From the NCBI GenBank assembly GCA_016207275.1, contig JACQPY010000013.1, positions 90,583 to 154,582 on the forward strand: a stretch of DNA of 64,000 nucleotides, written 5' to 3'. Position 1 is the stretch's first letter. The number at the start of each line of letters is the position of its first letter. The translations under genes and the position numbers were made by a program. Shown in pieces: positions 8,591-47,423 of the stretch. The notes beneath the pieces were generated by a model. That model was not told the origin of the DNA. It was given only the letters and a program-made list of their open reading frames with translations, and did no database searches. The stretch comes from Candidatus Kerfeldbacteria bacterium (GTDB lineage: Bacteria > Patescibacteriota > Patescibacteriia > SBBC01).

Positions 8591-8595
8591 GGGTT

Positions 8596-9126: not shown

Positions 9127-9128
9127 AG

Positions 9129-9479: not shown

Positions 9480-9480
9480 G

Positions 9481-20765: not shown

Positions 20766-20787
20766 ACTGATATTTAAAAACAACATT

Positions 20788-21798: not shown

Positions 21799-23448
21799 TT
21801 AGGCGATCGGCGGGCCCGCGCTTAGCCGCGGCCCAATTAATCCTCGATGTCGATCGAGCCAGGCAGTAATGGTCAAACGAAGAAAGGTTCGGCTGATCGT
21901 AATCGCGGAAAACATACTGACGATAATGCCGATGGCCAAGGTGATGGCGAAGCCTTTGATGATACTGGTGCCGAACCAGGCGAGAATAAAAGCGGTAATC
22001 AGGGAAGAAACGTTCGAGTCGCGAATGGACAGCCAGGCTCGTCGAAAGCCTTCCCCGAGTGCACTCTGAAGCGGTCGGCCAGCCCGCAGCTCTTCACGAA
22101 AACGCTCGAAAATCAGAATGTTGGCGTCCACGGCCATACCGATAGAGAGAATGAAACCGGCGACGCCGGCCAGGGTCAGCGTCACTGGCCACAGCTTAAA
22201 GATTGCTAAGACCATGACGGCGTAGGCAATCAGGGCGATCGACGCCAGCAGGCCAGGTACACGGTAGAAGCCGATCATGAACAGCATGACGACGGCAATG
22301 CCCACCAAGCCAGCGAACAAGCTGCGGGTGACCGAATCCTGACCGAGCGTCGGGCCGACGGTTTGCTGACTGATTAACGTGATCGGCACGGGCAAGGCAC
22401 CGGCATTCAAACGACGAGCCAGCGTTTTAGCCTCGTCAATCGTAAAGTCGCCGGTAATCACTGCCGTGCCGCCGGTAATTTCTTGCTGGACTACGGGAAC
22501 TGAAATCGGGGCGTTGTCGAGGTAGATGGCCACCTGCTTGCCAACGTTGCGTTTGGTTATTTCAGCGAATAGTTTGGTGCCCTCATCGTCGAACTGGAGA
22601 CTGACTTCTGGCTCACCGGTGTTGGGATTAAACTGAACGGCGGCGGAACGAAGCTGCTTACCGGATAACCCCGTGAGCGCATAACCCTCGGGATTCGATA
22701 GATCATTAATGGCGACCAAGATATGCTGACCATGGACTTCGAGGATAGTTTGATCGCCTTCTTGAACCTGTCGCGACTCAATTCGTTTAACGAGGTGGTA
22801 ACCAAATTCGGTTTTAACCGGCGGGGACGAAACCTGTCCGTCGCTTAAGGTATCAAAAAGAGTTTGTTCGAACGCGGGGACAAATTGGCCGCGGCGAGCA
22901 AAGCCCAAGTCACCGCCTGAGTTTTTTGAACCGGGGTCGTCAGAGTACTCTTTGGCGACCGTCGCAAAGTCCACCGTCGCCTGGCGCACCTTGGCCGCAA
23001 CTTCATCAGCACGGGCTTTAGCCTCGGTTTCGGAACGGAGTTGTTTCGCCGCTGCCGTCTCGCGAAAATCAAGTAGCGGCGTTTCACCAATTTGTCGGAT
23101 GGCCTCCTGGACGTCTTTAACCCCGGCCAGTTCAACGGAAACCCGCCACCGGTCCCCGACTCGACTGGTTTGGACAACCGGCTCAGATACGCCAAAGGCG
23201 TTGACCCGCCGTTCAATCACGTCGCGGACGCCCTGCAGGGCGTCTTCCCGATCGCTGGTTTTAACCCGAGTGGTGTCGGCGTCGTAGACTAACCGCGTGC
23301 CGCCTTGTAAATCAAGACCAAGATGAACTTTCAGTTCCTTGCGGTACGAGCCAACCGCCACGTCAGGAGCGCTGGGATAGACGACGTACCCACCGGCCAG
23401 GACCACCAGGACAATGAGGATAAACGTAATCCAGACGTTCCGTCGCAT
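21799..23448 (-). CDS. secD: Protein-export membrane protein SecD
   Basis: An N-terminal TM helix, a periplasmic domain, and the C-terminal six-TM bundle (GPTLGQDSVTRSLFAGLVGIAVVMLFM...). It sits 3 nt upstream of secF. Confidence 0.9.
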   Translation of the reverse strand: MRRNVWITFILIVLVVLAGGYVVYPSAPDVAVGSYRKELKVHLGLDLQGGTRLVYDADTTRVKTSDREDALQGVRDVIERRVNAFGVSEPVVQTSRVGDRWRVSVELAGVKDVQEAIRQIGETPLLDFRETAAAKQLRSETEAKARADEVAAKVRQATVDFATVAKEYSDDPGSKNSGGDLGFARRGQFVPAFEQTLFDTLSDGQVSSPPVKTEFGYHLVKRIESRQVQEGDQTILEVHGQHILVAINDLSNPEGYALTGLSGKQLRSAAVQFNPNTGEPEVSLQFDDEGTKLFAEITKRNVGKQVAIYLDNAPISVPVVQQEITGGTAVITGDFTIDEAKTLARRLNAGALPVPITLISQQTVGPTLGQDSVTRSLFAGLVGIAVVMLFMIGFYRVPGLLASIALIAYAVMVLAIFKLWPVTLTLAGVAGFILSIGMAVDANILIFERFREELRAGRPLQSALGEGFRRAWLSIRDSNVSSLITAFILAWFGTSIIKGFAITLAIGIIVSMFSAITISRTFLRLTITAWLDRHRGLIGPRLSAGPPIA

Positions 23449-23484: not shown

Positions 23485-24888
23485 TCAACGCTCAACAATC
23501 ACGGGCGTGGCCACGGTCGCCCAGTGGTAGAGCTTCTTCGCTTCCGCTAAGGTTTGACGGATGCAACCATGTGAGACTGCCGTCCCCAGGTGGCCAACGC
23601 CTTCGTACCGTTTTCCCCCGCCGTTCGTTTTCCAGAATGGCAAGGCATGCATGCCGTAGGAACCATCGGGCGTAAAGGCCATCCACCATTCCATGTACAG
23701 GTCGTAGGGCTTAGCGTACGCGACCGTAATTTTGTTTTTAACGGCAAACGTGCCGATTGGTGTTGGCGTCGTCCACTTGCCAGTCGAGACTTGATGGGTG
23801 CCGAGCAGCAGCCCATTCTGGTAGTAGCGGAGCTTTTGTTCTGATAGATCAATGGCGATGTAGCGGTATAAATCCAAACGGCCATCGGTGCCAACCGCGC
23901 CGGGACCGACCAGCACGCCGCTGCTTCCTGCGGCAACAAAGACGCCACCGCGGAATTGCTGTTCGTACGCCAGGAACGAATGTTTTTGCCTGCCGTTGAG
24001 CGAAAAGATGCGGACGTGCGGTTTGCTACCTGGACCCTGGGCGGCGACGATTTCGGCGATACCGTCGCCGTCCAGGTCGCCGGCGGCGATCTGGACGCCA
24101 CCGGTAAACGAGGCGGCAAATGCGTAAAACGTTTGTTCGTACTGCTGACGATTAGGATCAAAAACGCGGACGCGGGTCGAAGCCGATCGTTCCTGGGCCA
24201 TGACGAGCCGACTGCGCTGGCCAGTGACTGCGGCGACGGCCACAACTACCCCCGCGGTTGAGCCGGGAAACGGCCGCAAGCTTAGACCAGCGTACTGACC
24301 GTCAGGAGTGAACGAGCGAACGTGGCTTGTCCCGTAGCCGGAACCGGTCACGATTCGCGTTTCACCGTTCGACCCCAGCGGTCCAGCGGCGACGCTGACG
24401 CCGCCGCGAAAACGTTTGTCATAGACGAAAAAGGCGGTTTGACGCGAGCCGTCGGCGTTAAAGACACGCACCTCAGGGCCGCCACCACTCCCCGGCGCGG
24501 TCACGATTTCTGCTCGACCGTCACCAGTCAAGTCGTAGGCCGCGACCCGAATCCCGCCCCGAAAACCGCGGTCGTAGGCAAAAAAGCGGCGAACGAGCCG
24601 GCCGTCGCGAGCGTAAATACGTACCTCTGGTCCGCCGCCAGGGCCCGCGCCGGTAATGATCTCGTCCGCGCCATCACCGTCGATGTCGCTCAGCGCCACG
24701 GTTACACCACCACGAAAAGTTTTACGGTAGGCGGTGATTGATTGCTGTCGGTTCCCGTTTGGCGAAAATAAATGGACCTCAGGTTCCATTCGGCCAGTTA
24801 CCGCCGCCTCGACTCGGTCAGCACGTAGCGCAAAAAACAGGCTCACGACTATGGCGATACTGGCGAGCGCTTCAACCGATGTTCGCAT
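23485..24888 (-). CDS. Secreted L,D-transpeptidase (YkuD domain) with four N-terminal FG-GAP-like repeats
   Basis: A signal-peptide-like N-terminus, then four repeats of the form FRGG.x.VAxxDxDGDGxxEIVTGxGPGGGPEVRVF. The C-terminal YkuD catalytic domain has GTHQVSTGKW...TPTPIGTFAV...HGCIRQ. Confidence 0.75.
   Translation of the reverse strand: MRTSVEALASIAIVVSLFFALRADRVEAAVTGRMEPEVHLFSPNGNRQQSITAYRKTFRGGVTVALSDIDGDGADEIITGAGPGGGPEVRIYARDGRLVRRFFAYDRGFRGGIRVAAYDLTGDGRAEIVTAPGSGGGPEVRVFNADGSRQTAFFVYDKRFRGGVSVAAGPLGSNGETRIVTGSGYGTSHVRSFTPDGQYAGLSLRPFPGSTAGVVVAVAAVTGQRSRLVMAQERSASTRVRVFDPNRQQYEQTFYAFAASFTGGVQIAAGDLDGDGIAEIVAAQGPGSKPHVRIFSLNGRQKHSFLAYEQQFRGGVFVAAGSSGVLVGPGAVGTDGRLDLYRYIAIDLSEQKLRYYQNGLLLGTHQVSTGKWTTPTPIGTFAVKNKITVAYAKPYDLYMEWWMAFTPDGSYGMHALPFWKTNGGGKRYEGVGHLGTAVSHGCIRQTLAEAKKLYHWATVATPVIVER
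23991..24726 (-). repeat. Intragenic tandem array of FG-GAP-like repeat units (about 55-60 aa each) inside the L,D-transpeptidase gene
   Basis: The DxDGDG...EIVT...PEVRVF unit recurs four times at the protein level and visibly at the DNA level (gccggcggcgat / gtcgatgtcgct ... gtcgcc motifs). Confidence 0.6.
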
Positions 24889-25077: not shown

Positions 25078-27852
25078 TCAAGCCGCTTGGCCAGCCTGCG
25101 CACGTAGTTTGCAGCTTGGGTCATTGGCCAAGTAGCACTTTTTAAACTTCTTGCCTGAACCGCATGGGCACGGATCATTCCGGCCGACATCGCGCAGACT
25201 GGTCGGGCGGTCAGCTGACGTAGGCGTGGTCGCCAGACCACGTGCGTCGGCCATGGTTTTGGCCGGACCAGCGGTAGTTAACGTTTGACTTCGCGGCGTG
25301 GCAGTGGTTTCGGCCTGGGCCAAGCCCAAAGTAAAGATTGATTGCGCGGCATGACTGTTGATCGCCGCGATTAGTTCGGTGAACAAACGGTAGGCCTCAC
25401 GTTTGTATTCAACGAGTGGCTCGCGCTGACCATAACCGCGGAGGCCGATGCCCTCACGTAAGTGCTCCATCAAATCAAGATGCTCGATCCAGAGCGAATC
25501 GATGCTGCGGAGCATGACCGCGCGGAGAAACTGCGCCAGACGCTCCGGACTGCCGACTGACGATTCCAAGTGGGCAAACTGTTGCCGGAGCAGCGTGGTC
25601 GCAAATTCGGTCAGGCCGGAGCGGACGGAGGCCTCGCCAGGACGACTGTCGACCACCGGTCCCAGCTCGCTCAGGCGACGACGGTCAGGCCACGGTTGTT
25701 GCATCAAGTTGCTGAGCGAGTCGTAGAGCTGGTCAAGATTCCACTGGGCCGGGTCGTCGCCACTCGTGTGCAGTGTCACCGCTGTTTCGACCGCCTCTTC
25801 GAGTACGTCTCGAGCCAGTTGTTGCAGCTGGTTGAGCGGGGCAAACAAAACCTCAAGACGTTTTCGATAGATGACATCCCGATGTTTGTTCATGACATCA
25901 TCGTACTCAACGAGATGCTTGCGAATATCGAAGTTATGACCCTCAACTTTCTTTTGAGCCGATTCGATCGAACGGCTGATCATCCGATTGGCAATCGGCA
26001 TATCGTCGGGAATACCGAGACGGTCCATTAAGTTTTTCATCCGCTCGCTACCGAAGATACGCATCAGGTCGTCTTCCATCGACAAGTAAAACTGGGATGA
26101 GCCAGGGTCGCCCTGACGGCCAGCGCGCCCGCGCAGCTGCAAGTCAATGCGGCGGGATTCGTGGCGTTCCGTACCGATGACGTGCAAACCGCCAAGCGTC
26201 TTAACCTGTCTCTGCAGATCTGGCTGCGGCGGGTTGCCGCCGAGGATGATGTCGACGCCGCGACCAGCCATGTTGGTGGCAATGGTGACCGCGCCGGGGC
26301 GGCCAGCTTGAGCAATGATTTGTGCTTCGCGCTCGTGATTCTTGGCGTTGAGGACCTGGTGCGGGACGCCTTCGCGTTCGAGCAACCCTGACAGCAGCTC
26401 GTTCTTAGCAATCGAGACCGTGCCAACTAAAACTGGCTGCCCCGCTTCATGTCGATGACGGATTTCCCGAACCGCGGCGGTAAACTTTCCGGTCTCAGTT
26501 TTGTAGACGCTGTCCTCGCGGTCGGTCCGGATCATCGGCCGATGGGTTGGGATGATGACCACGTCAAGGTTGTAGATTTTGTGAAATTCCTCGGCTTCGG
26601 TCGCGGCCGTACCGGTCATGCCCGCTAGTTTACGGTACAGGCGAAAGAGGTTTTGGAAGGTGATGGTCGCCAGGGTTTGGCTTTCCTGTTTAATCGCCAC
26701 GCCTTCCTTCGCCTCAATTGCCTGGTGCAAGCCCTCGGCGTACCGTCGGCCGAACATTAAACGACCAGTGAACTCGTCGACAATGACAATTTCCCCTTCC
26801 CGCACGACGTATTGTGTATCGCGTTCAAACAGTCGAGAGTGAGCTCGCAAGGCCTGGTTGATGACGTTCAGTTGCTCACTGTCAGCGCTGGCGTACAGGT
26901 TTGGTACCCCCAGCATCCGCTCCAAGGCGCTAATCCCCTCCTCAGTCAAAAATGAGCTTCGCTGTTTCTCGTCAACCTGGTAGTGTCGGTTTTCCTCAAG
27001 TTGCTTGACGAAACCATCGATCCGGCGGTAATCGTCAGCTGATCGTTCGACCGGCGCGGAAATAATCAGGGGCGTCCGGGCCTCATCAATGAGAATTGAA
27101 TCAACCTCATCAACGATAGCGTAGTGGAGCTGACGTTGAACCAGGAACCGTGGATCCGGCGCCATGTGGTCGCGTAGGTAGTCAAAGCCGAACTCATTAT
27201 TGGTTCCGTAGGTTATATCCGCTCGGTACGCGTCGGCCCGGCTGATCGGACGTAAATGTTCAAGCAGCGGATCGGTGGCCTGATCGTTATGAAAATCGGG
27301 ATCGAACTGCCAAGCGGCTTCGTGAACAATCGCGGCGCAACTCAAGCCGAGACGATGGTAAATGCTACCCATCCAACCGGTGTCGCGCTTCGCCAGATAG
27401 TCGTTGACGGTGACGACATGGACCCCGCGACCAACGAGGGCGTTGAGCGAAACGGGTAACGTCGCCACCAACGTTTTGCCTTCACCAGTTTTCATTTCGG
27501 CGATCTTCCCTTGGTGCAGAACAATTCCGCCGACGAGCTGGACATCGTAATGCCGCTGGCCGATTGCCCGTTGGGCGGCCTCACGGACCAACGCAAAAAC
27601 CTCGGCGAGGACGCCGTCAAGCTTGCGGCGGTGACCATTGACGGTCTGGCGAAGCTCATGCGCTCGCTGCCGCAACTGATCATCGGTCAAGACGCTGACC
27701 GAGCGCTCCCGCTGATTAATATCGAAAACAAACGGTTCGAGTTGTTTGAGGTACCGTTGGTTAGCGTCACCGAAAAGTTTGGTCAGTAAAGGCATACGAC
27801 CGACGGAAAAATGCGGCAGCGGAAGCATGCCATACCGACGACCGGCATGCAA
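25078..27852 (-). CDS. secA: Protein translocase ATPase SecA (the true start is probably the internal Met of MPLLTKLFG)
   Basis: DEAD-like motor (DEVDSILIDEARTPLIISAP), the full SecA architecture, and a C-terminal zinc finger CPCGSGKKFKKC. Confidence 0.95.
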   Translation of the reverse strand: MHAGRRYGMLPLPHFSVGRMPLLTKLFGDANQRYLKQLEPFVFDINQRERSVSVLTDDQLRQRAHELRQTVNGHRRKLDGVLAEVFALVREAAQRAIGQRHYDVQLVGGIVLHQGKIAEMKTGEGKTLVATLPVSLNALVGRGVHVVTVNDYLAKRDTGWMGSIYHRLGLSCAAIVHEAAWQFDPDFHNDQATDPLLEHLRPISRADAYRADITYGTNNEFGFDYLRDHMAPDPRFLVQRQLHYAIVDEVDSILIDEARTPLIISAPVERSADDYRRIDGFVKQLEENRHYQVDEKQRSSFLTEEGISALERMLGVPNLYASADSEQLNVINQALRAHSRLFERDTQYVVREGEIVIVDEFTGRLMFGRRYAEGLHQAIEAKEGVAIKQESQTLATITFQNLFRLYRKLAGMTGTAATEAEEFHKIYNLDVVIIPTHRPMIRTDREDSVYKTETGKFTAAVREIRHRHEAGQPVLVGTVSIAKNELLSGLLEREGVPHQVLNAKNHEREAQIIAQAGRPGAVTIATNMAGRGVDIILGGNPPQPDLQRQVKTLGGLHVIGTERHESRRIDLQLRGRAGRQGDPGSSQFYLSMEDDLMRIFGSERMKNLMDRLGIPDDMPIANRMISRSIESAQKKVEGHNFDIRKHLVEYDDVMNKHRDVIYRKRLEVLFAPLNQLQQLARDVLEEAVETAVTLHTSGDDPAQWNLDQLYDSLSNLMQQPWPDRRRLSELGPVVDSRPGEASVRSGLTEFATTLLRQQFAHLESSVGSPERLAQFLRAVMLRSIDSLWIEHLDLMEHLREGIGLRGYGQREPLVEYKREAYRLFTELIAAINSHAAQSIFTLGLAQAETTATPRSQTLTTAGPAKTMADARGLATTPTSADRPTSLRDVGRNDPCPCGSGKKFKKCYLANDPSCKLRAQAGQAA

Positions 27853-27855
27853 GCG

Positions 27856-28158
27856 TTAGATTCGAACCGACCGCTCTTTGGCTTTGACCACCAACCGTTC
27901 GAGTTTCGCGTAGAGCACGTCAACGGCGGCGGCGAACGACTCGCCTTCCGCCGAGGCCCGCAGGTCATCGCCCGGGGACTCAACCCAGCCGTAGGCGACG
28001 AAGACGTCGCCGCGTCGGTGGTGACGGTTGATGCTGATCTCAACGTGCATTCGAATGAGCCGCTGCCAAAATCGTTCGAGTCGTCCGAGTTTACGCTCGA
28101 TCACTGCTCGCATGCTCGGCGTCATGACAAGGTTTTTCCCGGAAATAATGATGTCCAT
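27856..28158 (-). CDS. hpf: Ribosome hibernation promoting factor (short HPF/RaiA form)
   Basis: MDIIISGKNLVMTPSMRAVIERKLGRLERF..., 100 aa, 3 nt upstream of secA. Confidence 0.8.
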   Translation of the reverse strand: MDIIISGKNLVMTPSMRAVIERKLGRLERFWQRLIRMHVEISINRHHRRGDVFVAYGWVESPGDDLRASAEGESFAAAVDVLYAKLERLVVKAKERSVRI

Positions 28159-28166
28159 AGACCTCC

Positions 28167-30185
28167 TTAAAAACCGATAAATTGAACCTCTTCCTCGAGT
28201 TGAACGCCAAACTGGTCTCGGACCTGCTGCTTGACCAGACTCGCCAGCATGACCACGTGCTCCGCGGTGCCGCCGCCGAGGTTGACGAAGAAATTCGCGT
28301 GCTGTTTGTTGACCTCGATCTGACCGATCCGTCTGCCAGCCAGCCCGGCTTCGGCAATTAAGGCCCAGGCTGGCAACCGACCATGCTTAATGACCGCGGC
28401 AAATCGCGTACGCAAACGCTCGTGGTCTTGTTTCAAGACGATATTCTTGAACATGCAACCCGCACTCGGCCAGGTCAGCGGCTGGTGTGCTCGTTTATAG
28501 GCGGTGAATTCGGCGATCTGTTGGCGAGCTTCAGCCACGGCACCGGTAGTCAGGGTACATCGGACCGTGATCACCGCCGCTGGCGTGTGCTTGAGCCGGC
28601 TGTCACGGTAGCCGAACCTAAGCTGCTCGTTCGTCCATGTTTCGACGGTTCCCCGTCCGGTAATAACCTGGCACGAGCGGACAATGTCTCGCATTTCGCG
28701 GCCAAAGGAACCGGCGTTACCGCGAACTGCCCCGCCGACGGTACCATAGATGCCGACCATAAACTCCATGCCGACGAGGCCAGCGTTGAGGCACTGACTG
28801 GCAAATAGACCCGTATTCATCCCCGCACCAACGGTAACCGCTGTACCGTCAGCGGTAAATTCAGCGTTACGCGCCTGGATGACGACGCCACGAAATCCCG
28901 GGTCGGAAAAAACACTATTGGCGCCGCCGCCGAGGATGAAGGACGGCAGTCGAGCCTGGTGCACGGCTCGAACAGTCGCCACTAATTCGGCTGACGTTCG
29001 CGCCACCACAAACATGTCAGCAGGGCCACCGATCTTAAAGTTACTGTGTTTAGCCAGCAATTCACTAAAACGAATATCACTGACCCGGGATGCCAGCTGG
29101 CGCACTACGTGACGGTACGGCGGTGGCTGGGCAAGTCGTTCAACCTGGCGAACGATCGTTTGGGCGGCATCTAACTTAGCCAGCGCTCGGACGTTAGCAG
29201 CCAACTGGCCGCGGCGCAGCTTATTTTCATGTAGCTCAAGTATGGTTTGCTCGAGTCGCTGGTGGTTTAAGGTCCGCTCGTTGAGCACCACGGCCGCTTG
29301 ATGACGAGCGAAGTACGCCGCATTAGCTTCTTGATGGGTGGCCGGAATTGGGATAACAATGGCGGGTTTACCGAGGGCGGCGATTTCCGCCAGACTCGAT
29401 AGACCGGCTCGGCAAATTACCAAATCGGCTACGGCATACGCGTCAGCCATCTCGTTTATCAAGAAATCGAATGTATGGTAGTTGGGGTGCGTCACTCGAA
29501 ACTGATTTTGTCGGCCGCCGGTCAGGTGGACGATCTGAAAATTTTTGACCAGGTTGAGACCCGCTTCGGCCACCAATTGGTTGAGGCGGAGCGCGCCCGT
29601 GCCGCCGCCAAACGCCAGCAGGACTGGTAAGGTCTTGTGCAGGCCAAAGCGTTCGTACGCCCGCTGGGCCTGGCCGTGGAGTATTTCCGGGCGAATTGGG
29701 TTGCCAACCCAACTTGTTTTTCGTCGGGAGAAATGCTGTTCAGACTCAGGAAAGGCCACGGTAATCGCCGCGGCCACCGGCGCACACAGTCGGTTGGCAA
29801 GGCCGGGTTTGATATCTTGCTGATGGATCAAGCTGGGAATACCAAAGAGTCGACCGACGTAGACGATCGGTACGCTGACATAGCTGCCGACGCTGACGAT
29901 CGCATCAGGACGAAATTGGCGGAGGAGACGCCACGCTTCGGCCACACCGATAAGCAGTCGAACAATGTCAACCACGTTAAGTAACGAAACGTAGCGGCGC
30001 AGCTTACCGGCGGTAATACCGACGAACGGTAAATCCGCCGCTTGGGCGAGTTGTCGTTCTGCGCCGTGACGGGTACCAACCAAGAGCAGCTCAACCTGAG
30101 GGTGACTTCGCCGCAGCTCGTTGGCAATCGCCAACAGCGGCACCGTGGCTCCGCCGGTACTGCCGCCGACTAAAATAACCCGCAT
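28167..30185 (-). CDS. murG-murB: MurG–MurB fusion protein: N-terminal undecaprenyl-PP-MurNAc-pentapeptide GlcNAc transferase fused to a C-terminal UDP-N-acetylenolpyruvoylglucosamine reductase
   Basis: Residues 1 to about 360 are MurG (MRVILVGGSTGGATVPLLAIANEL...). Residues from about 375 to 672 are MurB, with the FAD-binding FKIGGPADMFVVARTSAELV and LGGGANSVFSD. Confidence 0.85.
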   Translation of the reverse strand: MRVILVGGSTGGATVPLLAIANELRRSHPQVELLLVGTRHGAERQLAQAADLPFVGITAGKLRRYVSLLNVVDIVRLLIGVAEAWRLLRQFRPDAIVSVGSYVSVPIVYVGRLFGIPSLIHQQDIKPGLANRLCAPVAAAITVAFPESEQHFSRRKTSWVGNPIRPEILHGQAQRAYERFGLHKTLPVLLAFGGGTGALRLNQLVAEAGLNLVKNFQIVHLTGGRQNQFRVTHPNYHTFDFLINEMADAYAVADLVICRAGLSSLAEIAALGKPAIVIPIPATHQEANAAYFARHQAAVVLNERTLNHQRLEQTILELHENKLRRGQLAANVRALAKLDAAQTIVRQVERLAQPPPYRHVVRQLASRVSDIRFSELLAKHSNFKIGGPADMFVVARTSAELVATVRAVHQARLPSFILGGGANSVFSDPGFRGVVIQARNAEFTADGTAVTVGAGMNTGLFASQCLNAGLVGMEFMVGIYGTVGGAVRGNAGSFGREMRDIVRSCQVITGRGTVETWTNEQLRFGYRDSRLKHTPAAVITVRCTLTTGAVAEARQQIAEFTAYKRAHQPLTWPSAGCMFKNIVLKQDHERLRTRFAAVIKHGRLPAWALIAEAGLAGRRIGQIEVNKQHANFFVNLGGGTAEHVVMLASLVKQQVRDQFGVQLEEEVQFIGF

Positions 30186-30194
30186 CGGATCAGG

Positions 30195-31295
30195 TTACGA
30201 TCGAGCATAGCGAGAAATATTGGCCAATATTCCAATGGCCGCGCACGAGGTGATGAGCGCGGTACCGCCATAGCTGACGAACGGTAACGGAATGCCGGTC
30301 AACGGCAAGACGCCGGTCAACGCCCCGATGTTGATCAAGGCTTGAAAACCAAACCAGGTCGTAATCCCGGCGGCCAGGATGCGGCCGAATTCATCGGGTG
30401 CCTGGCGAGCAATGCGGTAGCCTTTAAAAATAAACGCGACAAACAGCGCCAGCAAGCCAAGCACGATAATGAAACCGAGCTCTTCAGCGATGATGGCAAA
30501 AATTGAATCGCTGGTGGCCTCCGGTAAGTAGTCGAATTTCTGGCGCGAGTGCCCGAGACCGAGGCCGAAGAGGCCGCCTGAACCGATTGCCAAAAGCGCT
30601 TGGTTAATGTGGTAGCCAATGCCCTGCGGGTCGAGCTGCGGGTTAAGGAAGACCAAAAAACGTTCGACGCGATACGACGCGGTCTTGATGAGCACGGCAA
30701 AAGCGGTAACGGCAAAACCACCAATCAAGACTAAATCGCGCACCGGCGCACCGGCGACAAAGTAGCTCGATAAAGCAATCAGGGTGATAATGGTCATCGT
30801 GCCGATGTCGGGTTGTCTGATGATGAGAAGCGTAATCGTACCGAGAATCGCCAGGAACGGCCAGAGGCCGTAAGCACGATCTTGAATTCGGTGTTCGCGT
30901 TCACTCAGCCAGCCGGCTAAGTAAATCAAAAACATGATTTTTACCAACTCGGCAGGTTGAAAAAAAATAGGACCGATCGAGATCCACCGTCGTGCGCCGA
31001 GCAACTCGCGGCCAATTCCTGGAATGAAAACAGCGACTAGCAGGGCGATTGACAAAACCAGAAGCGGAAAAGCAACGGCCCGCCACTGGCGATAGTCAAT
31101 CCTAACGGTGACGCTAAAAATAATAACGCCGATGAGGATACTTAATAGTTGCCGCTTTAAAAAGTACGTACTGTCACCGTACTGCTGGTAGGCGACGACC
31201 GTACTGGCGCTCGATAAGACCACGAGCCCGAAAACCACGATGGCGCCGACGATGAGGAGCAGGGCGGGATCGAGGCGGCGTGAGGAACGGGTCAT
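30195..31295 (-). CDS. ftsW: SEDS-family peptidoglycan polymerase FtsW/RodA
   Basis: A 10-TM SEDS protein with LLLIVGAIVVFGLVVLSSAS... and the conserved C-terminal GGTALITSCAAIGIL. A 4-nt overlap with the upstream gene. Confidence 0.85.
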   Translation of the reverse strand: MTRSSRRLDPALLLIVGAIVVFGLVVLSSASTVVAYQQYGDSTYFLKRQLLSILIGVIIFSVTVRIDYRQWRAVAFPLLVLSIALLVAVFIPGIGRELLGARRWISIGPIFFQPAELVKIMFLIYLAGWLSEREHRIQDRAYGLWPFLAILGTITLLIIRQPDIGTMTIITLIALSSYFVAGAPVRDLVLIGGFAVTAFAVLIKTASYRVERFLVFLNPQLDPQGIGYHINQALLAIGSGGLFGLGLGHSRQKFDYLPEATSDSIFAIIAEELGFIIVLGLLALFVAFIFKGYRIARQAPDEFGRILAAGITTWFGFQALINIGALTGVLPLTGIPLPFVSYGGTALITSCAAIGILANISRYARS

Positions 31296-33436
31296 GAGCG
31301 TAGTTTTATCACGGCCGTTCGAAACTGATCGCCGCGGTCGAACTCATGCTGAAACAGACCGAAGCTGGCAGCGCCAGGACTCAAGATGATCGATTGGCCG
31401 ACCTGAGCCGTTTTGATTGCCTGTCGGACCGCGACGGGCATTGAAGCAACTTGACGCAGACGACCGTGGTAACCAAAGCGACGCAATGCTCGGATCAGTT
31501 TACGCGTCGCCGTTCCTGGTAACAATACCAGTGGGGTTGTCCGACGGGCAAATGTTTTGGCGAGGGCCCTAAAATTTAGTCGTTTGTCGGTTCCGCCAAC
31601 GATGAACAAACCGTCAGGAAAAGCTTCTACCGCTGCCAGCGTTGCATCTGGCGTCGTGGCGGAGGAATCGTTAACAAAACTATGTCCGCGCCATCGCCGG
31701 ACAAGTTCTTGACGGTGCGGTAGAAGACGAAACCCGCGGAGCGCCCGCCGAATTGTCGCGATGGGGATGCGTACAGCTCGGGCGGCACTAACCGCGGCGA
31801 TGACATTTGCCTGTAAGGCCGTGGTTGAGAACGTTTCCGATAGTTTGGGAATAATCGTCGTTGATTTCGTTCCGTGACGCTCAACTAACTTTCCCTTTTG
31901 CAGATAAATACTCCAGCCGGGCGGTCGCTCCCGCTGCGACCACCACAGGATTTTAGCCCCGGTTACGTGACGAGCTAAACGAGCTGGCCGAGAATCGTAG
32001 TTGAGAACCGCAATGTCTCGCGGGTTTTGGTACTGAAACATACGGTATTTGGCGGCGGCGTAAGCTGACATGTTCTGGTATCGATCAAGATGATCGACCA
32101 AGAGGTTCGTCATAACGGCCACCTGCGGACTGCGCGCGACCGCATCCGAAAATTCAAGCTGAAATGATGACAGTTCGAGGATAACGTAATCTTGTTTCGA
32201 CAATCGGTCGAGAACACTGAGCATCGGCTTTTGTGCAATGTTACCCGACAATACCACCCGGGATAGCTGCGGCCGCATGATCTGGTACAAGAGCCAAGCG
32301 ACCGTCGACTTTCCCCGCGTTCCCGTGATGCCAATAATTCTCGCTGGACAGAAGCGAAGAAAAAGCGACCACTCGTTGACGATTGGTTTTCTCAGTTTTC
32401 GGGCTAAACGTAATTCGGGAATTGATGAAGGTACGCTTTGATTTTGGTAGACAAGATCAGCCCAGTGAATATCTTCTCGATGGTGACCGCCCAAACGATA
32501 CCTGACCGGTAATTCACGAAGCTGACGAAGTGTCGGCGCGAGCTGACGAGCGTTTTTGCGATCGGTGACGCAAACGTGCGCGCCGTGTTTAACAAACCAT
32601 TCGACTGCGCTGGCCGCTCCCCCATGCAAACCCAGACCGACCACTAACACACGCTTACCCTTAAGCGATTCGAGCGGATCGCGCAATCCAGCGATGACCA
32701 CGAACGAATGCCGGCGATCGGATTTTTGCCGACGGGCTGAGGGCAACAGCCAGCGACTATGAATCGTACAGTGTCGACTAACCTCAAGCTGTGCGGTGAG
32801 CACACCGGCGCTTACCAACTCGAGTGTGGCCGCTCGACGCAGGTCAAGGAACACTCGACCGGCTCGGTGAACCACCGTCGAATTTCCGAACCGCTTCATA
32901 AATTGATGTACGCGGCGGTCACGTTTTTCGGTCACGTCATAACAGCACGGGCCGGCTGATGGCCCGAGCCAAACCAACAGGGCTCTCGGCGCGGCACCGC
33001 ACGCGACCATTGTTTGAATCAGGTTTTGCACCACCCCGCGAACAAGCCCACGCCAGCCAGCATGAGCGACACCAACGATGCGGTGCACTGGATCGTAGGC
33101 CACAACCGGAATGCAATCAGCCGAGTAGAGGCCCAACGATTGGCCGAGTTTCTTGGTGACTAAGCCGTCGGTACTAGCTACGAACGTTCGCGGTTTGGCT
33201 GAATTGCCGGAGACCAATGCCACGCGTCGACCGTGGACCTGTTGACCGAAAACAATCCCGCTTGATCGGGCGCCTAACGTTTGATAGAAAACGATACGAT
33301 TGTTCACCGCGCGTCGTCCAGTCGCATGAGCAAACCGTCGTTGACCCTGCCACACGATTCCACCGCCCACAATCAATTCAGGAAAACGACCAAACAGGCG
33401 CGGCCGGATGATAACCGGTCGAGTAGGCACGCTCAT
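31292..33436 (-). CDS. pgeF-murD: PgeF/YfiH (DUF152, peptidoglycan editing factor / laccase-domain) fused to MurD (UDP-MurNAc-L-Ala--D-Glu ligase)
   Basis: The N-terminal roughly 245 aa carry the YfiH signature HRIVGVAHAGWRGLVRGV. The C-terminal part is MurD (KGKRVLVVGLGLHGGAASAVEWF, P-loop IGITGTRGKSTVAWLL, DHLDRY). Confidence 0.8.
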   Translation of the reverse strand: MSVPTRPVIIRPRLFGRFPELIVGGGIVWQGQRRFAHATGRRAVNNRIVFYQTLGARSSGIVFGQQVHGRRVALVSGNSAKPRTFVASTDGLVTKKLGQSLGLYSADCIPVVAYDPVHRIVGVAHAGWRGLVRGVVQNLIQTMVACGAAPRALLVWLGPSAGPCCYDVTEKRDRRVHQFMKRFGNSTVVHRAGRVFLDLRRAATLELVSAGVLTAQLEVSRHCTIHSRWLLPSARRQKSDRRHSFVVIAGLRDPLESLKGKRVLVVGLGLHGGAASAVEWFVKHGAHVCVTDRKNARQLAPTLRQLRELPVRYRLGGHHREDIHWADLVYQNQSVPSSIPELRLARKLRKPIVNEWSLFLRFCPARIIGITGTRGKSTVAWLLYQIMRPQLSRVVLSGNIAQKPMLSVLDRLSKQDYVILELSSFQLEFSDAVARSPQVAVMTNLLVDHLDRYQNMSAYAAAKYRMFQYQNPRDIAVLNYDSRPARLARHVTGAKILWWSQRERPPGWSIYLQKGKLVERHGTKSTTIIPKLSETFSTTALQANVIAAVSAARAVRIPIATIRRALRGFRLLPHRQELVRRWRGHSFVNDSSATTPDATLAAVEAFPDGLFIVGGTDKRLNFRALAKTFARRTTPLVLLPGTATRKLIRALRRFGYHGRLRQVASMPVAVRQAIKTAQVGQSIILSPGAASFGLFQHEFDRGDQFRTAVIKLRS

Positions 33437-33471
33437 AACAGCGCTAGCATACCACGAACTGACTGCTACGA

Positions 33472-34524
33472 CTAGGTCACCCCGCGGTCAATCAGGACAA
33501 GAATGAAGCCGATCACCGCGGTGACTGCCGATATGATCCAAAAACGCATGACTACTTTTGGTTCCGGCCAACCGCGGGCTTCAAAGTGGTGGTGGATCGG
33601 TGCCGAACGGAACAACTTGCGTCCGGTCAGGCGACGCCAGGCGATTTGAAGAATCACGGAAGTCGACTCAAGCACCAGGACAAAACTGATGATCGGGAGA
33701 AATAGAGCGGCGTTCGTCAGCATCGCCACGACGCCGAGGGTGGTGCCCAGCCCCATGGCACCGGTATCGCCCATGAAAAAGCGCGCCGGATGAATGTTGA
33801 ACCACAAAAAGGCAAGCAGACTACCAACAATCACGCCGCAGAAGGTGGCGAGAAAAAAATGTCCTTGGATAAAGGCAATGGCCCCAAAGGTGGCAAACGC
33901 GGCCAGCAGAACACCACCCGCGAGTCCGTCGAGCCCATCGGTTATGTTGACGGAATGAGACGTGGCGACGATGATAAAAATAAAAATCGGGACATACCAT
34001 AAGCCAATGTCAAAATTTCCAACAAACGGTATGTGGATCGTGGTCCAGTCAAGCTTGACCACGAACCACCACGCGCCAACGGCGGCAATCAACGCGTAGA
34101 GGACCAGTCGGTGTCGGACCCGCAGGCCGCTGGCCGTTCCGATTCGACGAACGTTAAAAACGTCATCAATCAAGCCGACGAGAGACGCCGCGACGAGCGC
34201 CCCGAGCGGCAACAGCGTTTCTGCCCGGGTCAAGAAGTTGAACCGGTGCCAGGTCGAAAACCCAAGCACCCGATCGAGCAACCACGGCAGCCCGGCGAAG
34301 ACGAGCGTCGTCACCCAGACTAACACGCCGCCCATCGTCGGCGTACCTTGTTTTGCCTGGTGTAATCCGGTGAACACCGGCGTCTGACCGGCATCCCTAA
34401 TTTGCTTACCGATTCGGTAGCGGAACAAAAAATTCGTCAGGAGCGGGGTCCAGGCAACGGTCACCGTAAAGGCGGCCGCGGTCAAGACGAACAACGCGAT
34501 AATAGCTGCATCAACGCTACTCAT
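33472..34524 (-). CDS. mraY: Phospho-N-acetylmuramoyl-pentapeptide transferase MraY (start at the Met forming an ATGA overlap with the upstream small ORF; the track ORF extends to 34701)
   Basis: SVNITDGLDGLAGGVLL and HHHFE motifs, 10 TM helices. Confidence 0.9.
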   Translation of the reverse strand: MSSVDAAIIALFVLTAAAFTVTVAWTPLLTNFLFRYRIGKQIRDAGQTPVFTGLHQAKQGTPTMGGVLVWVTTLVFAGLPWLLDRVLGFSTWHRFNFLTRAETLLPLGALVAASLVGLIDDVFNVRRIGTASGLRVRHRLVLYALIAAVGAWWFVVKLDWTTIHIPFVGNFDIGLWYVPIFIFIIVATSHSVNITDGLDGLAGGVLLAAFATFGAIAFIQGHFFLATFCGVIVGSLLAFLWFNIHPARFFMGDTGAMGLGTTLGVVAMLTNAALFLPIISFVLVLESTSVILQIAWRRLTGRKLFRSAPIHHHFEARGWPEPKVVMRFWIISAVTAVIGFILVLIDRGVT

Positions 34525-34889
34525 GCCAGTAACCGAAAAGTCAGGACGGCGGCCGCCAACAACATCAATTCGAGGAACGTCGTTAAAACCGTAATCAGAA
34601 CCGCCGACGCCCGCTGGTGTTCCACGACGCTGGCGTACAACATGGTGTTGATGAGCAGCATCACGGTTCCGGATAAGGGCAAGAGGTAGGCCAGGTACCA
34701 CGGCCCGATTCGGTCAATTCCAAAAGTGGTGGTATAGTGCAGTGGTATGGGATCTGGTTGCGGCCGAACTCGCCACGCCGTGAAAACCCATTGGCCGAGG
34801 TTGAGTGTCGTGGCGAGGGCAATGATGAAGGGAATCCCACGCTGGAGCCTGATTTTTGCTAATCCGCGGAGCGGAGAGGTTAAGCGCAT
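34521..34889 (-). CDS. Hypothetical small membrane protein (122 aa) immediately upstream of mraY
   Basis: Three to four predicted TM helices, an ATGA overlap with mraY, same strand and coding-like composition. No family recognised. Confidence 0.4.
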   Translation of the reverse strand: MRLTSPLRGLAKIRLQRGIPFIIALATTLNLGQWVFTAWRVRPQPDPIPLHYTTTFGIDRIGPWYLAYLLPLSGTVMLLINTMLYASVVEHQRASAVLITVLTTFLELMLLAAAVLTFRLLA

Positions 34890-34892
34890 AAC

Positions 34893-36668
34893 GTGAAGCT
34901 GTCAGATCTTCGTCCCCCCATCATCGCGGCGATCGTACTAGTAATTATGTTTGTCGTGGAAGTACGTTCGGCCGCCGTCGAATCACCGATTATTGACGAG
35001 GGCGTTCACCTCGCCGCCGGTTTGAGTTATTGGCGGACCGGTGATTTTCGTCTGAATCCGGAACACCCGCCACTGATCAAGTTGTTCAGTACGTGGCCGC
35101 TACTGTTCACGACGATGACGATCCCGACCAATCACCCAACCTGGATCGCCTGGAACGAGTGGGAGTTAGCTGACTATCTGCTGCATAACAGTCCCGTGTC
35201 GATTGAAATTGTGCTCCGGCTGGCTCGTGTACCAATCATGCTGTTAAGCATTGCCTTGGGCTGGCTGATCTACCGAGCGAGTAGCGAACTATTTGGTCGC
35301 TGGGCCGGGGTATTCAGCCTGGTACTGTACGCGTTTGACCCGAATATTATCGCCCACAGCCGCTACGTCACCACTGACCTCGGCTTCACCGCCTTTACGT
35401 TTCTGAGTATATACTGCTTGGCCCGGTTGCTGCAACAGCCAACGATTCTCCGCGCGGCGATTTTTGGTTTAGCCTTAATCGCCGCCGGCTTGAGCAAATT
35501 TTCGGGCATCGCGTTGGCCGTCTGCATCGGCCTGGCGATCGGCCTGCTTAAACGCCTGAAACCAGGCTTGCCCGCACTGCGCGGCCGGATGGTTGGCCGA
35601 TGGTTGTTGGTTTGGGTTCCAATGGCCGCCCTGCTTACCTGGGCGATCTACGGTTTCGACGTCCGACGGCCGGCTGAAGATCCGCGTATCAGCCAACTGT
35701 ACTCACAACGCGAGCAGCTCTTAAAAGTCACCAATCCATCAACCCTGCCACCCCTCGAACGATTTGCCGTTGCGCAGCTGGGTGATCGCGCCCGGACAAT
35801 CGGTGCCTGGCTTGAACGGGGCAGTCAGTACCCCCTTCCCGGCTACGCCTTCTGGCGAGGTTTTTTCGCCGTTCTGGGTCACAGCTTCGGCGGTCAGGAG
35901 TCGTATCTACTGGGCTCGTACGCTGATCGCGGCTGGTGGTATTACTTCCCCGTGGCGCTGATCGTCAAAACGCCGTTACCGACGTTGATTGGCCTGACCG
36001 CCATACTCATGCTTGCGGTCGCCACCTGCTGGGCCCGGCACCGAGCCGGCGACGCTTGGCGAACGATCGGTGCGGCGATCGATATCAGAATTATGCTCTA
36101 CACGAGTATACCGACGATGTTCTTTCTCCTCAGCCTCGGCAGCAACCTTAACTTAGGCTGGCGACACATCATGCCGATCTACCCCTTCCTGTTTGTCCTG
36201 CTCGGCGGGCTTACCCGCTTACCGACGCCGCGAACAACCGTCCGCTGGCTCATTCCAAGCCTCTTAGCTAGTAATCTCGTCTTGATCCAAATCGCCGCCT
36301 ACCCCAATGAACTCGGTTACTTCAGCGAGTTGATTGGCGGGACGAGATTTGGCCCGCGGTACCTCCTCGATTCAAACCTGGATTGGGGGCAAGACTTGCC
36401 GAAGTTGGCCGCCTATGTTCGCCAGCACGGCTTAACCCAACTGCCCCTCGCCTATTACGGTCGGGCGAACCTAGCACACTATCTACCGGTGGCCACGACG
36501 CTGCCGAGCACCGACGAAATCCGCCAACAGGGACGACCTTCCGGAGCGGTTGCCATCAGCGTCGGCGAACTCTTCCGCCGTGATGGTCGCTACCGCTGGT
36601 TGTGGTCAGAACACCCAAATGAAATCGTTGGGTCAAGTATTTATGTCTATCATCTGCCATCAACGTAG
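34893..36668 (+). CDS. GT-C fold glycosyltransferase, family 39/83 (PMT / ArnT-like, polyprenyl-phosphate-sugar dependent)
   Basis: An N-terminal TM helix, then the loop-1 DE motif (IIDEGVHLAAGLSYWRTGDFRLNPEHPPLIKL), about 11 TM helices, and a C-terminal soluble domain. Confidence 0.75.
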   Translation: MKLSDLRPPIIAAIVLVIMFVVEVRSAAVESPIIDEGVHLAAGLSYWRTGDFRLNPEHPPLIKLFSTWPLLFTTMTIPTNHPTWIAWNEWELADYLLHNSPVSIEIVLRLARVPIMLLSIALGWLIYRASSELFGRWAGVFSLVLYAFDPNIIAHSRYVTTDLGFTAFTFLSIYCLARLLQQPTILRAAIFGLALIAAGLSKFSGIALAVCIGLAIGLLKRLKPGLPALRGRMVGRWLLVWVPMAALLTWAIYGFDVRRPAEDPRISQLYSQREQLLKVTNPSTLPPLERFAVAQLGDRARTIGAWLERGSQYPLPGYAFWRGFFAVLGHSFGGQESYLLGSYADRGWWYYFPVALIVKTPLPTLIGLTAILMLAVATCWARHRAGDAWRTIGAAIDIRIMLYTSIPTMFFLLSLGSNLNLGWRHIMPIYPFLFVLLGGLTRLPTPRTTVRWLIPSLLASNLVLIQIAAYPNELGYFSELIGGTRFGPRYLLDSNLDWGQDLPKLAAYVRQHGLTQLPLAYYGRANLAHYLPVATTLPSTDEIRQQGRPSGAVAISVGELFRRDGRYRWLWSEHPNEIVGSSIYVYHLPST

Positions 36669-36669
36669 G

Positions 36670-36698
36670 TTGACGTAAGGCATTTCCCGTGCTATAAT
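36670..36698 (+). promoter_or_regulatory. Near-consensus sigma-70 promoter TTGACG-17-TATAAT for the type IV pilus operon
   Basis: ggTTGACGtaaggcatttcccgtgcTATAATaatg, 27 nt upstream of the pilB GTG start at 36726. Confidence 0.6.
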
Positions 36699-36725
36699 AA
36701 TGACAGCAAAATTTGCCCGAAGCGA

Positions 36726-38450
36726 GTGATCAATCAAACAAAACTCTACAACATCCTGACTAAAAGTAGTGTCATTGCGTCTGACGCACTGGATGGCGCA
36801 GTCCAGGAGTCGAAAGAGCAACACGCTGATTTGGCGCAGTTTTTGGTGGCTAAAAATTTAGCCTCGGAAACGATCTTATACGAAACAATCGCGACCGGTT
36901 TAAAAATCCCTTTTGTCGATCTTTCCGCGATCAAAGTCCGACGCGACATCCTGACGATTGTGCCCGAACCAATCGCCCAGCTACATCATCTCGTCGCCTT
37001 CGATAAAACCGACCAGGGACTAAAAGTCGCAACGCTCGACCCGGATGACATCCAATCCTTTGAATTTTTGGAAAAGAAGGTTGGCCTGCCAATCGAAGTC
37101 CATCTCGCTACCCCCGCGGGAATTAAATCGATTCTCAAGCAGTACCGCAAAGGCCTGCGGGCTGAGTTCCGGGAAATCACCGCCGAGCAAGTCGAAGGCG
37201 CCGGTCCAGAAAATCTGAAACAACTTGCCGAAGACGTCCCGGTTGTCAGAATCGTTGACACCCTCCTCGAACACGCCATTTTTGAAAGCGCCTCCGACAT
37301 CCATATTGAACCGACGGAGAAAGACACGGTGGTCCGGTACCGCATCGACGGCATCCTGCGCGACGTCATGACCTTACCCAAAAAGATCCAGTCGGGCGTC
37401 GTGGCGAGAATTAAAATCCTGTCAAACTTAAAAATCGACGAGCACCGTCTACCGCAAGACGGCCGGTTTAAAATTGAAACCGATGCTCAGCGCGTCGCCT
37501 TCCGCGTTTCCATCCTGCCGGTTTACGACGGCGAAAAAGTCGTTTTACGCGTCCTCAATGAATCGGCCCAAGCGCTCTCGCTCGAGCAACTCGGTCTTCA
37601 GTCACGACCGCTGGAACTGCTGCAACGCAACATCAGTAAACCCCACGGCATCATCTACGTCACGGGGCCGACGGGATCGGGAAAAACCACCACCCTCTAC
37701 ACCGTCATTACTAAACTCAATACGGCCTCGGTCAACATTTCAACTATCGAGGACCCCATCGAGTACCGGATGATTCGCGTCAACCAAACTCAAGTCAATC
37801 CCAAAATCGGCCTGACCTTTGCGGCCGGCCTACGCGCCCTCCTCCGCCAGGATCCGAACATCATTATGGTCGGCGAAATTCGTGATATGGAAACAGCGGA
37901 AATAGCCACGCACGCCGCGATGACCGGTCACCTCGTGTTGACCACCCTGCACACAAACGATGCCGTCACCACGCTCCCTCGCCTGACTGAAATGGGCGTA
38001 CCGAGTTTCCTCGTTGCTTCAACGACTAACCTCGTTATGGCGCAGCGCTTAGTCCGAAAAATTTGCACCCACTGCATCGAAAGCTACACCCTCTCGCGGA
38101 CGGCGATCACCAACCTAGCCAAGCAAATAAACATCCAAAATATTCTCGAGATCCTCGAACACGAAGGCGCCATCGCCTCGGCCAAACAGGCGCCGGAGAC
38201 GTTGCTGTTCTATCGTGGCCGAGGCTGTCGTCAATGCAATGACACTGGCTACAAAGGCCGTATTGGCATTTACGAACTCCTCGAAGTCACCGCCGAAGTC
38301 AGCGAAGTCATTCTTCATCGCGCGACGGCCGACGAACTACAATCCCTGGCGGTCAAGCAAGGCATGTTGACCATGCTCCACGACGGCTTTCTCAAGGCCA
38401 AAGCGGGAATCACCACCGTCGAAGAAATCCTCCGCGTGACTAAGGAGTAG
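36726..38450 (+). CDS. pilB: Type IV pilus assembly ATPase PilB (GspE family), GTG start
   Basis: Walker A VTGPTGSGKTTTLY, Asp and His boxes, and the tetra-Cys motif CTHCIESY...CRQCNDTGYKGR. Confidence 0.9.
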   Translation: MINQTKLYNILTKSSVIASDALDGAVQESKEQHADLAQFLVAKNLASETILYETIATGLKIPFVDLSAIKVRRDILTIVPEPIAQLHHLVAFDKTDQGLKVATLDPDDIQSFEFLEKKVGLPIEVHLATPAGIKSILKQYRKGLRAEFREITAEQVEGAGPENLKQLAEDVPVVRIVDTLLEHAIFESASDIHIEPTEKDTVVRYRIDGILRDVMTLPKKIQSGVVARIKILSNLKIDEHRLPQDGRFKIETDAQRVAFRVSILPVYDGEKVVLRVLNESAQALSLEQLGLQSRPLELLQRNISKPHGIIYVTGPTGSGKTTTLYTVITKLNTASVNISTIEDPIEYRMIRVNQTQVNPKIGLTFAAGLRALLRQDPNIIMVGEIRDMETAEIATHAAMTGHLVLTTLHTNDAVTTLPRLTEMGVPSFLVASTTNLVMAQRLVRKICTHCIESYTLSRTAITNLAKQINIQNILEILEHEGAIASAKQAPETLLFYRGRGCRQCNDTGYKGRIGIYELLEVTAEVSEVILHRATADELQSLAVKQGMLTMLHDGFLKAKAGITTVEEILRVTKE

Positions 38451-47330: not shown

Positions 47331-47423
47331 GAACCAACCGGTAGCCTTGTCAGCATGCGCCTGATACAATGGTGAGTACGTTGAGCATTCTACCATAATG
47401 AACCAACCCGTCAACGAAAGCCA

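Follow-up and report, generated by a model that had tools for sequence, protein, structure and literature searches.

The PgeF proteins (also named YfiH or YlmD; DUF152 family) were established as peptidoglycan editing factors only in 2017-2025. YfiH, an amidase of the cytoplasm, accommodates UDP-N-acetylmuramoyl (UDP-MurNAc)-monopeptide in an L-shaped groove (PMC8844914). The UDP-MurNAc-monopeptides are the preferred substrates of PgeF, the Ser and Gly forms being error products of MurC (PMC8844914, PMC12280929). Ser and Gly monopeptides are removed by 5 nM PgeF while di- and tripeptides need 100-fold more enzyme, and at 100-fold excess PgeF also cleaves the correct Ala monopeptide (PMC12280929). 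Two consequences can be drawn: (i) efficient editing is confined to the interval between the MurC and MurD steps; (ii) PgeF dosage matters. MurD itself turns the Ser monopeptide into dipeptide in vitro (PMC8844914). The present analysis deals with a single open reading frame (ORF), pgeF-murD, in which a PgeF domain and MurD are joined in one chain. It is carried by a stretch of 64,000 nucleotides (nt), hereafter the window, i.e., positions 90,583-154,582 of the forward strand of contig JACQPY010000013.1 (assembly GCA_016207275.1). The source is Candidatus Kerfeldbacteria bacterium (GTDB lineage Bacteria; Patescibacteriota; Patescibacteriia; SBBC01), an uncultured member of the candidate phyla radiation (CPR) represented by a metagenome-assembled genome (MAG). 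All window genes and motifs described below lie on the minus strand.

The stand-alone PgeF proteins (E. coli YfiH, 7F3V, 7W1G and 1Z9T; Geobacillus YlmD, 6T0Y) have in common with the window domain the fold, the Cys-His-Asp triad and His71, the Ala-Asp-Cys (ADC) turn, Gln69 and the UDP contacts. They differ from it in being free proteins of ~25 kDa, without MurD interaction in E. coli (PMC12280929), whereas the window domain is covalently joined to MurD and has Ala instead of Tyr227. In Gram-positives, ylmD lies within the dcw (division and cell wall)/ftsZ operon (PMC5943314), i.e., an association with cell-wall and division genes as for the window pgeF. Ordinary MurD (E. coli 4UAG, 1UAG) and the window MurD have the same three-domain layout, the same catalytic and D-Glu residues and the same position between mraY and ftsW; the difference is an extra N-terminal extension of 261 residues, which is an independent enzyme.

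Natural Mur chimeras have been surveyed by Shirakawa et al. (PNAS 2023, PMC10214165) among 5,914 UniProt Mur proteins longer than 600 amino acids (aa). Unidentified species were excluded from this survey, thus CPR metagenome genomes were removed. The catalogued chimeras are MurE-MurF, MurC-Ddl, MurC-MurB, MurG-MurC, MurD-FtsW and MraY-MurG. The text of the survey contains no PgeF-MurD type, the words YfiH and laccase are absent from it, and the MurG-MurB type found in the window (see below) is not mentioned. Like the catalogued chimeras, PgeF-MurD consists of two cytoplasmic enzymes of the peptidoglycan pathway, originating from dcw neighbours and joined with little or no linker. In MurE-MurF the two active sites work on one and the same intermediate or on consecutive ones, as is proposed here for PgeF-MurD. 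The partner in PgeF-MurD is on the contrary a hydrolytic quality-control enzyme and not a biosynthetic one.

Two other systems can be compared. Vertebrate FAMIN/LACC1 also contains a DUF152 domain within a multidomain protein, but at the C-terminus, with another partner and in another order; LACC1 has no peptidoglycan-editing activity (PMC12280929) and is reported to be a purine enzyme (PMC6978800). Cis-editing of Ser- and Gly-tRNA(Ala) by alanyl-tRNA synthetase (AlaRS), a parallel already drawn for free PgeF (PMC12280929), is no more than an analogy: a hydrolytic domain that edits Ser/Gly-for-Ala errors is carried on the chain of the synthetic enzyme. The folds and chemistry of aminoacyl-tRNA synthetase editing and of PgeF-MurD are unrelated, the editor of PgeF-MurD is on the next enzyme (MurD) and not on the error-maker (MurC), and no translocation mechanism is known for it.

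In full-text literature searches, a PgeF/YfiH/DUF152-MurD fusion was not found described. Taken one by one, both halves are ordinary members of their families; it is their combination that is new. A quality-control enzyme thereby joins the natural Mur chimeras, until now biosynthetic enzymes only, and the CPR/Patescibacteria genomes left out of earlier surveys hold undescribed architectures, i.e., PgeF-MurD, MurG-MurB and MurI-PgeF. The advance is incremental and not paradigm-changing since both enzymes and the editing concept were already known.

Reading frame and domains of PgeF-MurD

The pgeF-murD ORF (31292-33436) is uninterrupted from ATG to stop and encodes 714 aa. It has zero internal stops and zero frameshifts, and the DNA of the junction is ordinary in-frame sequence without homopolymer run. 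A preliminary description, made from the window sequence alone, had proposed this continuous frame and had named a frameshift or sequencing error as what could undo it. The same frame is found in an independent Logan assembly (L003, run SRR12113385), which is 100% identical, without gap, to positions 26233-35843 of the window (9,611 bp), and in 12 divergent orthologues. The PgeF-MurD fusion is real and conserved.

Pfam recognizes Cu-oxidase_4/DUF152 at aa 45-239 (E 1.7e-47), MurD-like_N at 261-353, Mur_ligase_M at 370-495 and Mur_ligase_C at 574-687. The preliminary description had assigned the first ~245 aa to YfiH/PgeF with its hallmark residues and the remainder to a complete MurD. Both assignments hold, the limits being aa 1-251 and aa 262-714, and the three motifs quoted at that time (HAGWRG, GITGTRGKST, DHLDRY) are located at the coordinates given below.

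The PgeF domain (aa 1-251; 32684-33436) exceeds the cut-off of the NCBIfam equivalog TIGR00726 (155.4 bits for 141.15, residues 46-247) and, by far, the threshold of PF02578 (162.3 bits for 22.9). The YfiH-PNP (purine nucleoside phosphorylase) model NF007998 gives only 69 bits on the fused protein vs. a cut-off of 369. Searches of the PDB retrieve YfiH/YlmD chains by sequence (E 3e-26) and 1T8H, 6DZD and 6T0Y by fold (Foldseek; target template modelling (TM) score 0.77-0.79, E ~1e-19 to 1e-20).

The residues were mapped by aligning the N-terminal half to the E. coli YfiH gene (6-sequence alignment), the roles being those given in PMC8844914. Q66-V-H68 (33233-33241) corresponds to YfiH Gln69, the Ser-specificity determinant, and His71; Asp90 (33167-33169) to Asp89 of the catalytic triad; A106-D107-C108 (33113-33121) to Ala105-Asp106-Cys107, i.e., the oxyanion beta-turn and the catalytic Cys. 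The motif HAGWRG (aa 125-130; 33047-33064) contains the catalytic His125 (YfiH His124) as well as W128 and R129, whose equivalents Trp127 and Arg128 contact the UDP diphosphate in YfiH. Arg235 (32732-32734) is the equivalent of YfiH Arg228, which contacts uracil, ribose and diphosphate. The absence of the catalytic His/Cys, feared in the preliminary description, is contradicted by this alignment. The equivalents of the catalytic Cys, His, Asp and His71 are kept in 13/13 fused proteins, that of Gln69 in 12/13 and in 54 of 60 stand-alone relatives; the Ala105 position is Ser in one fused protein (P0234). From these residues, the PgeF half of the window protein looks catalytically competent. A dead or regulatory PgeF domain was considered and rejected.

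The MurD domain (aa 262-714; 31295-32653) scores 345.2 bits with the NCBIfam equivalog TIGR01087 (cut-off 211.95, residues 262-709), while the MurC, MurE and MurF models give 66-74 bits, far under their own cut-offs. Its architecture is complete, with the N-domain PF21799, the central ATPase domain PF08245 and the C-terminal domain PF02875. MurD chains of the PDB are retrieved by sequence (E 9e-42), and the half superposes on ligand-bound E. coli MurD 4UAG with a target TM score of 0.91.

Alignment places the ATP P-loop GITGTRGKST at aa 369-378 (32303-32332) and the segment from DHLDRY (aa 448-453; His449 being E. coli His183) to Lys463, the equivalent of the carbamylated Lys198, at 32048-32095. 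In the numbering of the E. coli literature, the functional residues are P-loop Lys115, Glu157, His183, Lys198, Asn271 and Arg302, and Thr321, Lys348 and Ser415 for the D-Glu site. The equivalents of the P-loop lysine, Glu157, His183, Lys198, Arg302, Thr321, Lys348 and Ser415 are found in 13/13 fused proteins. That of Asn271 is present in the window protein and in 11/13 fused proteins, Cys being found in two members of group C (groups are defined below). E. coli Lys319 is not kept in the fusion and is likewise missing from unfused relatives; its loss is thus unrelated to the fusion. By the same alignment, the MurD half looks catalytically competent as well.

The two halves are connected by ten residues, RDPLESLKGK (aa 252-261; 32654-32683), located between the last strand of PgeF (243-251) and the first Rossmann strand of MurD (262-266). 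Linkers are of ~10 residues in all the fused proteins. A compact protein is predicted by AlphaFold2 from a 46-sequence alignment; the model has a mean predicted local distance difference test (pLDDT) score of 91.6 and a predicted TM (pTM) score of 0.86, with a pLDDT of 88-91 for residues 241-260. The values predicted for a group C orthologue, 32% identical, are 92.5 and 0.78, respectively. For a chain with four domains, a pTM this high suggests that the predicted domains are arranged in a defined way and are not beads on a string. In the fold search, no PDB chain spans both halves.

A search of 5.8 billion proteins retrieved an identical protein, MBI4426471.1 (Candidatus Kerfeldbacteria), annotated solely as MurD, and seven proteins of 691-714 aa with both domain sets and 32-63% identity. 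Five more came from an exhaustive HMMER search with just the PgeF domain, covering 1.84 billion representatives. In all, 13 fused PgeF-MurD proteins are available, at 29-100% identity to the window protein and from NCBI, JGI, ENA and Logan. All the named hosts are Patescibacteria, and the public annotation of the fused proteins is simply MurD. The fusion is rare: the family gave 19,847 matches, and 7 of the best 150 representatives for the PgeF domain have it. Two other architectures of PgeF were seen, i.e., a tandem PgeF-PgeF of 400 aa (P0137) and a PgeF with an HD/HDIG domain of 422 aa (P0247).

Origin of the fusion and history of its modules

The comparison with relatives that had been advised in the preliminary description gives both states, i.e., the 12 further fusions and separate adjacent genes. 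The closest stand-alone PgeF (P0123) is encoded by a separate gene between mraY and murD in two independent assemblies (L016 and L017). In L016, the pgeF stop TAA is at 3529-3531 and the natural murD start ATG at 3534, giving MNKEYFQGKKITIMGLGLHGG; the unfused genes have a 2-nt spacer and are in different frames. When their termini are joined (C-terminal tail of PgeF plus N-terminal tail of MurD), the resulting linker differs by no more than two or three residues from the linkers of ~10 residues found in the fused proteins. Judging from these sequences, the fusion comes from adjacent genes, and a small indel is enough to make it. The scenario would comprise two steps: (i) pgeF would have entered the dcw operon as the gene directly upstream of murD; (ii) the 2-nt spacer and the stop codon would then have been lost, joining the two genes.

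Another arrangement is found in L100 (GCA_043815505.1, 567-kb contig), with the order mraY-[murI-pgeF]-murD-ftsW-murG-murC-murB-secA. At 7001-8512, glutamate racemase (MurI) is fused to the N-terminus of PgeF (503 aa), with a 4-nt overlap with murD. Glutamate racemase supplies D-Glu to MurD. Being a singleton in the protein database, this MurI-PgeF protein counts for less, though information can still be drawn from the order of the genes. Three other close stand-alone PgeFs (P0136, P0125, P0160) are encoded outside dcw clusters, thus the mraY-pgeF-murD adjacency is itself uncommon.

The trees of the two modules were built by neighbour-joining, which is unable to tell repeated fusion from repeated loss. 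In the MurD-module tree the fused proteins form three groups, each with a bootstrap of 100, and a lone long branch (P0121): group A (window protein and P0002), group B (P0003 and P0122) and group C (eight members). About 30 unfused MurDs are placed between these groups, and the monophyly of A+B has 0% support. In the PgeF-module tree A and B are joined weakly (51%) and C strongly (100%), with stand-alone PgeFs interleaved. A single clean origin of the fusion was rejected, as neither tree supports it. The fusion is patchy; from these trees, either several origins or repeated losses are probable.

The history of the MurD module differs from that of its surroundings. With each of seven flanking genes (region 25078-38450), the window pairs with L002 (group B) at 96-100%, and with their concatenation at 100%. 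With the MurD module, it pairs with the L001 type, which is unfused, at 96%, and at 0% with L002. A rate artefact does not explain this discordance, since outgroup distances are equal. Group A lies deep inside an unfused clade, which is monophyletic without A in 5/100 replicates only. A sliding-window comparison gives the first ~60 residues of MurD as equally close to group B and the unfused clade, and the central ~300 as much closer to the latter. The linker motif GLRDPL is common to groups A and B. The most economical reading is that, in lineage A, most of the MurD module of an ancestral fused gene was swapped in-frame by recombination with an unfused-type murD, PgeF and the junction being kept. 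Comparison of GC content and GC content at third codon positions (GC3) of both halves with those of the neighbours gave no clear signal of foreign origin.

Proposed function and alternatives

It is likely that the fusion is a bifunctional enzyme of peptidoglycan precursors, i.e., a PgeF editor and a MurD ligase that arose from adjacent genes and would edit at the MurD step. The N-terminal Cys-His-Asp amidase would convert UDP-MurNAc-L-Ser and -Gly back to UDP-MurNAc, while the C-terminal MurD would perform the ATP-driven ligation of D-Glu onto the correct UDP-MurNAc-L-Ala. Both active sites would bind the same class of molecule, UDP-MurNAc-monopeptide, the Ser and Gly forms competing with the substrate of MurD. 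The fusion would set the ratio of editor to MurD at 1:1, with the editor tethered by the short, ordered linker of ~10 residues beside the UDP-binding N-domain of MurD. Wrong monopeptides would be hydrolysed at the entry to MurD, before the addition of D-Glu makes them poor substrates of PgeF, and the correct one would be captured by MurD. Both activities in this protein, the Ser/Gly specificity and a kinetic benefit or a direct hand-off between the sites are inferred.

The preliminary description had proposed that editing would be coupled to the step that follows the addition of L-Ala. The published preference of PgeF for UDP-MurNAc-monopeptides (PMC8844914, PMC12280929) agrees with it, the coupling itself being still a deduction. 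The conserved fusion would constitute independent genomic evidence for a role of PgeF at the UDP-MurNAc-monopeptide step, indicates MurD rather than MurC as the partner of PgeF, and offers a natural construct for asking whether proximity raises editing fidelity or cuts its cost.

Several observations weigh against this bifunctional reading. About 30 of the closest MurD relatives come from separate genes, as in most bacteria. E. coli pulldowns gave no PgeF-MurC or PgeF-MurD interaction (PMC12280929); physical coupling is thus not a general requirement. With a 1:1 tether, correct substrate could be hydrolysed to no purpose, as PgeF in excess loses its discrimination. YfiH Tyr227, which stacks on the MurNAc ring, is replaced by Ala234 in the window protein; of 60 stand-alone relatives, 28 have Tyr at this position, 17 His and 6 Phe, so that it varies across the family and is not strictly defining for PgeF. 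YfiH Arg235, which forms a salt bridge to the amino-acid carboxylate, corresponds to R241 in the 6-sequence alignment and to Ser in a 74-sequence alignment, the C-terminal tail being unreliably aligned; Arg is found at this position in just 20/60 stand-alone relatives. The fused orthologue P0122 is without several of the substrate-contact residues. As for MurC, the enzyme whose errors PgeF would correct, its gene is missing from the 64-kb window, where tblastn with the MurC of a relative gave only weak paralogy to the murD part; in a database search with the same MurC, none of the 120 matches listed is attributable to the window genome, the three labelled Kerfeldbacteria bearing accessions distant from MBI4426471 (window protein) and MBI4090104 (P0002), but real group C MurCs also fall below these 120 and the source is a MAG, so that absence is not shown.

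A stronger form of the bifunctional reading can be considered, in which the sites have a fixed geometry and the tethered editor samples each UDP-MurNAc-monopeptide reaching MurD, the Ser and Gly forms being hydrolysed without equilibration with the bulk pool. Such a cis-proofreading ligase is possible, though on balance doubtful. If true, it would give the cis-editing domains of aminoacyl-tRNA synthetases a first counterpart in the cell wall, and the MurI-PgeF-MurD arrangement of L100 would point to a D-Glu-addition module around UDP-MurNAc-monopeptide.

The alternative that survives best is a neutral fusion: adjacent, translationally coupled genes would have merged by a small indel in a streamlined genome, and the domains would work as if separate, with neither kinetic coupling nor a gain in proofreading. 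The 2-nt spacing of the unfused state makes joining mutationally easy. Moreover, the same genomes join enzymes of non-consecutive steps (MurG-MurB in the window, MurG-MurC in L016), as do several of the surveyed Mur chimeras (PMC10214165); the patchy distribution with its many unfused close relatives and the result of the E. coli pulldowns go in the same direction. Nevertheless, the fusion persists down to 29-35% identity in three well-supported groups, with a constant, ordered linker of ~10 residues, and the junction would have outlived the replacement of the MurD module. In addition, pgeF was recruited specifically beside murD, and in L100 beside murI as well, all acting at the step of D-Glu addition. 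A purely neutral fusion is plausible, though rather unlikely.

Far less probable is another role of the DUF152 domain, i.e., a PNP/FAMIN-like purine enzyme, an amidase of other specificity or a brake hydrolysing UDP-MurNAc-L-Ala. PNP and adenosine-deaminase activities are reported for DUF152 proteins (PMC6978800), and the model NF007998 names YfiH as a PNP. The lack of conservation of Tyr227, the uncertain Arg235 and the cleavage of the Ala form by excess PgeF could also be invoked. On the other hand, the PNP activity is weak and without physiological role in E. coli (PMC12280929), the PgeF equivalog cut-off is exceeded while the YfiH-PNP model is far from its own, the UDP contacts W127, R128 and R228 as well as Gln69 are conserved, and the gene is within the dcw operon, fused to an enzyme acting on UDP-MurNAc-monopeptide.

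Finally, the idea that two genes were merged through faulty assembly or sequencing, or in a pseudogene, is effectively refuted: the source is indeed a MAG and unfused adjacent pgeF and murD exist in a relative, but an independent assembler yields the identical sequence, the junction falls at the same position in twelve other fused orthologues, which come from unrelated samples, the junction DNA lacks any homopolymer run, and the conservation of all catalytic residues argues against decay. A Shine-Dalgarno-like motif or an obvious internal start was looked for in the junction DNA and none was seen, though the sequence alone still allows an internally initiated free MurD.

Gene neighbourhood

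In every fetched locus the fusion is at the same place, mraY-[pgeF-murD]-ftsW. The conserved order of the cluster is: type IV pilus genes, PMT-family glycosyltransferase, small ORF, mraY, [pgeF-murD], ftsW, murG, (murC), murB, hpf, secA, YkuD transpeptidase. Directly upstream of the fusion, after a 35-nt gap, mraY probably occupies 33472-34524 (likely true start, 350 aa). The mechanically defined ORF, with a GTG start (33472-34701, 409 aa), is probably over-extended since the orthologues have 346-351 aa. Just upstream of mraY, a hydrophobic ORF of 122 aa without Pfam match (34521-34889) is the counterpart in position of ORFs of 121-138 aa in L002, L013, L004, L006 and L008. Directly downstream, ftsW (30195-31295; Pfam, NCBIfam) overlaps the fusion: the stop of the fusion and the start of ftsW share ATGA (31292-31295), which suggests an operon with translational coupling. 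Such a stop/start overlap is typical of operons.

The MurG-MurB fusion mentioned in the preliminary description is real (28167-30185, 672 aa; Pfam, NCBIfam) and is also present in L002 (11240-13261) and L013 (11175-13041). Between murG and murB, murC is present in L001, L004, L006, L008 and L100 and cleanly absent in the window, L002 and L013. In the group C genomes, murC is retained alongside the PgeF-MurD fusion; the fusion and the loss of murC from this place are thus independent. A causal link between them was rejected for this reason. The group C loci have in addition, between murC and murB and on the opposite strand, a conserved ORF of ~330 aa without Pfam match (L004, 15637-16638; L006, 12145-13146; L008, 15599-16591). 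In L016, a MurG-MurC fusion of more than 784 aa extends from 7180-9531 onward, both halves being over the NCBIfam cut-offs.

Several other genes of the window were noted. In SecD (21799-23448, also at the end of L002), an inserted peptidyl-prolyl isomerase (rotamase) domain of PpiC type separates the first P1 segment from the P1 head. A YkuD L,D-transpeptidase (23485-24888), conserved downstream of secA in L002, L006 and L008, carries fused FG-GAP repeats, and so does a subtilase of 1,004 aa (58810-61824). At ~13 kb from the cluster, murA (46023-47414) scores 405 bits with TIGR01072 (cut-off 392.7). The window also encodes a short-form AlaRS of 605 aa (12680-14497) and a protein of 388 aa (19620-20786) with a sigma-70 region 4 and a HARE-HTH domain.

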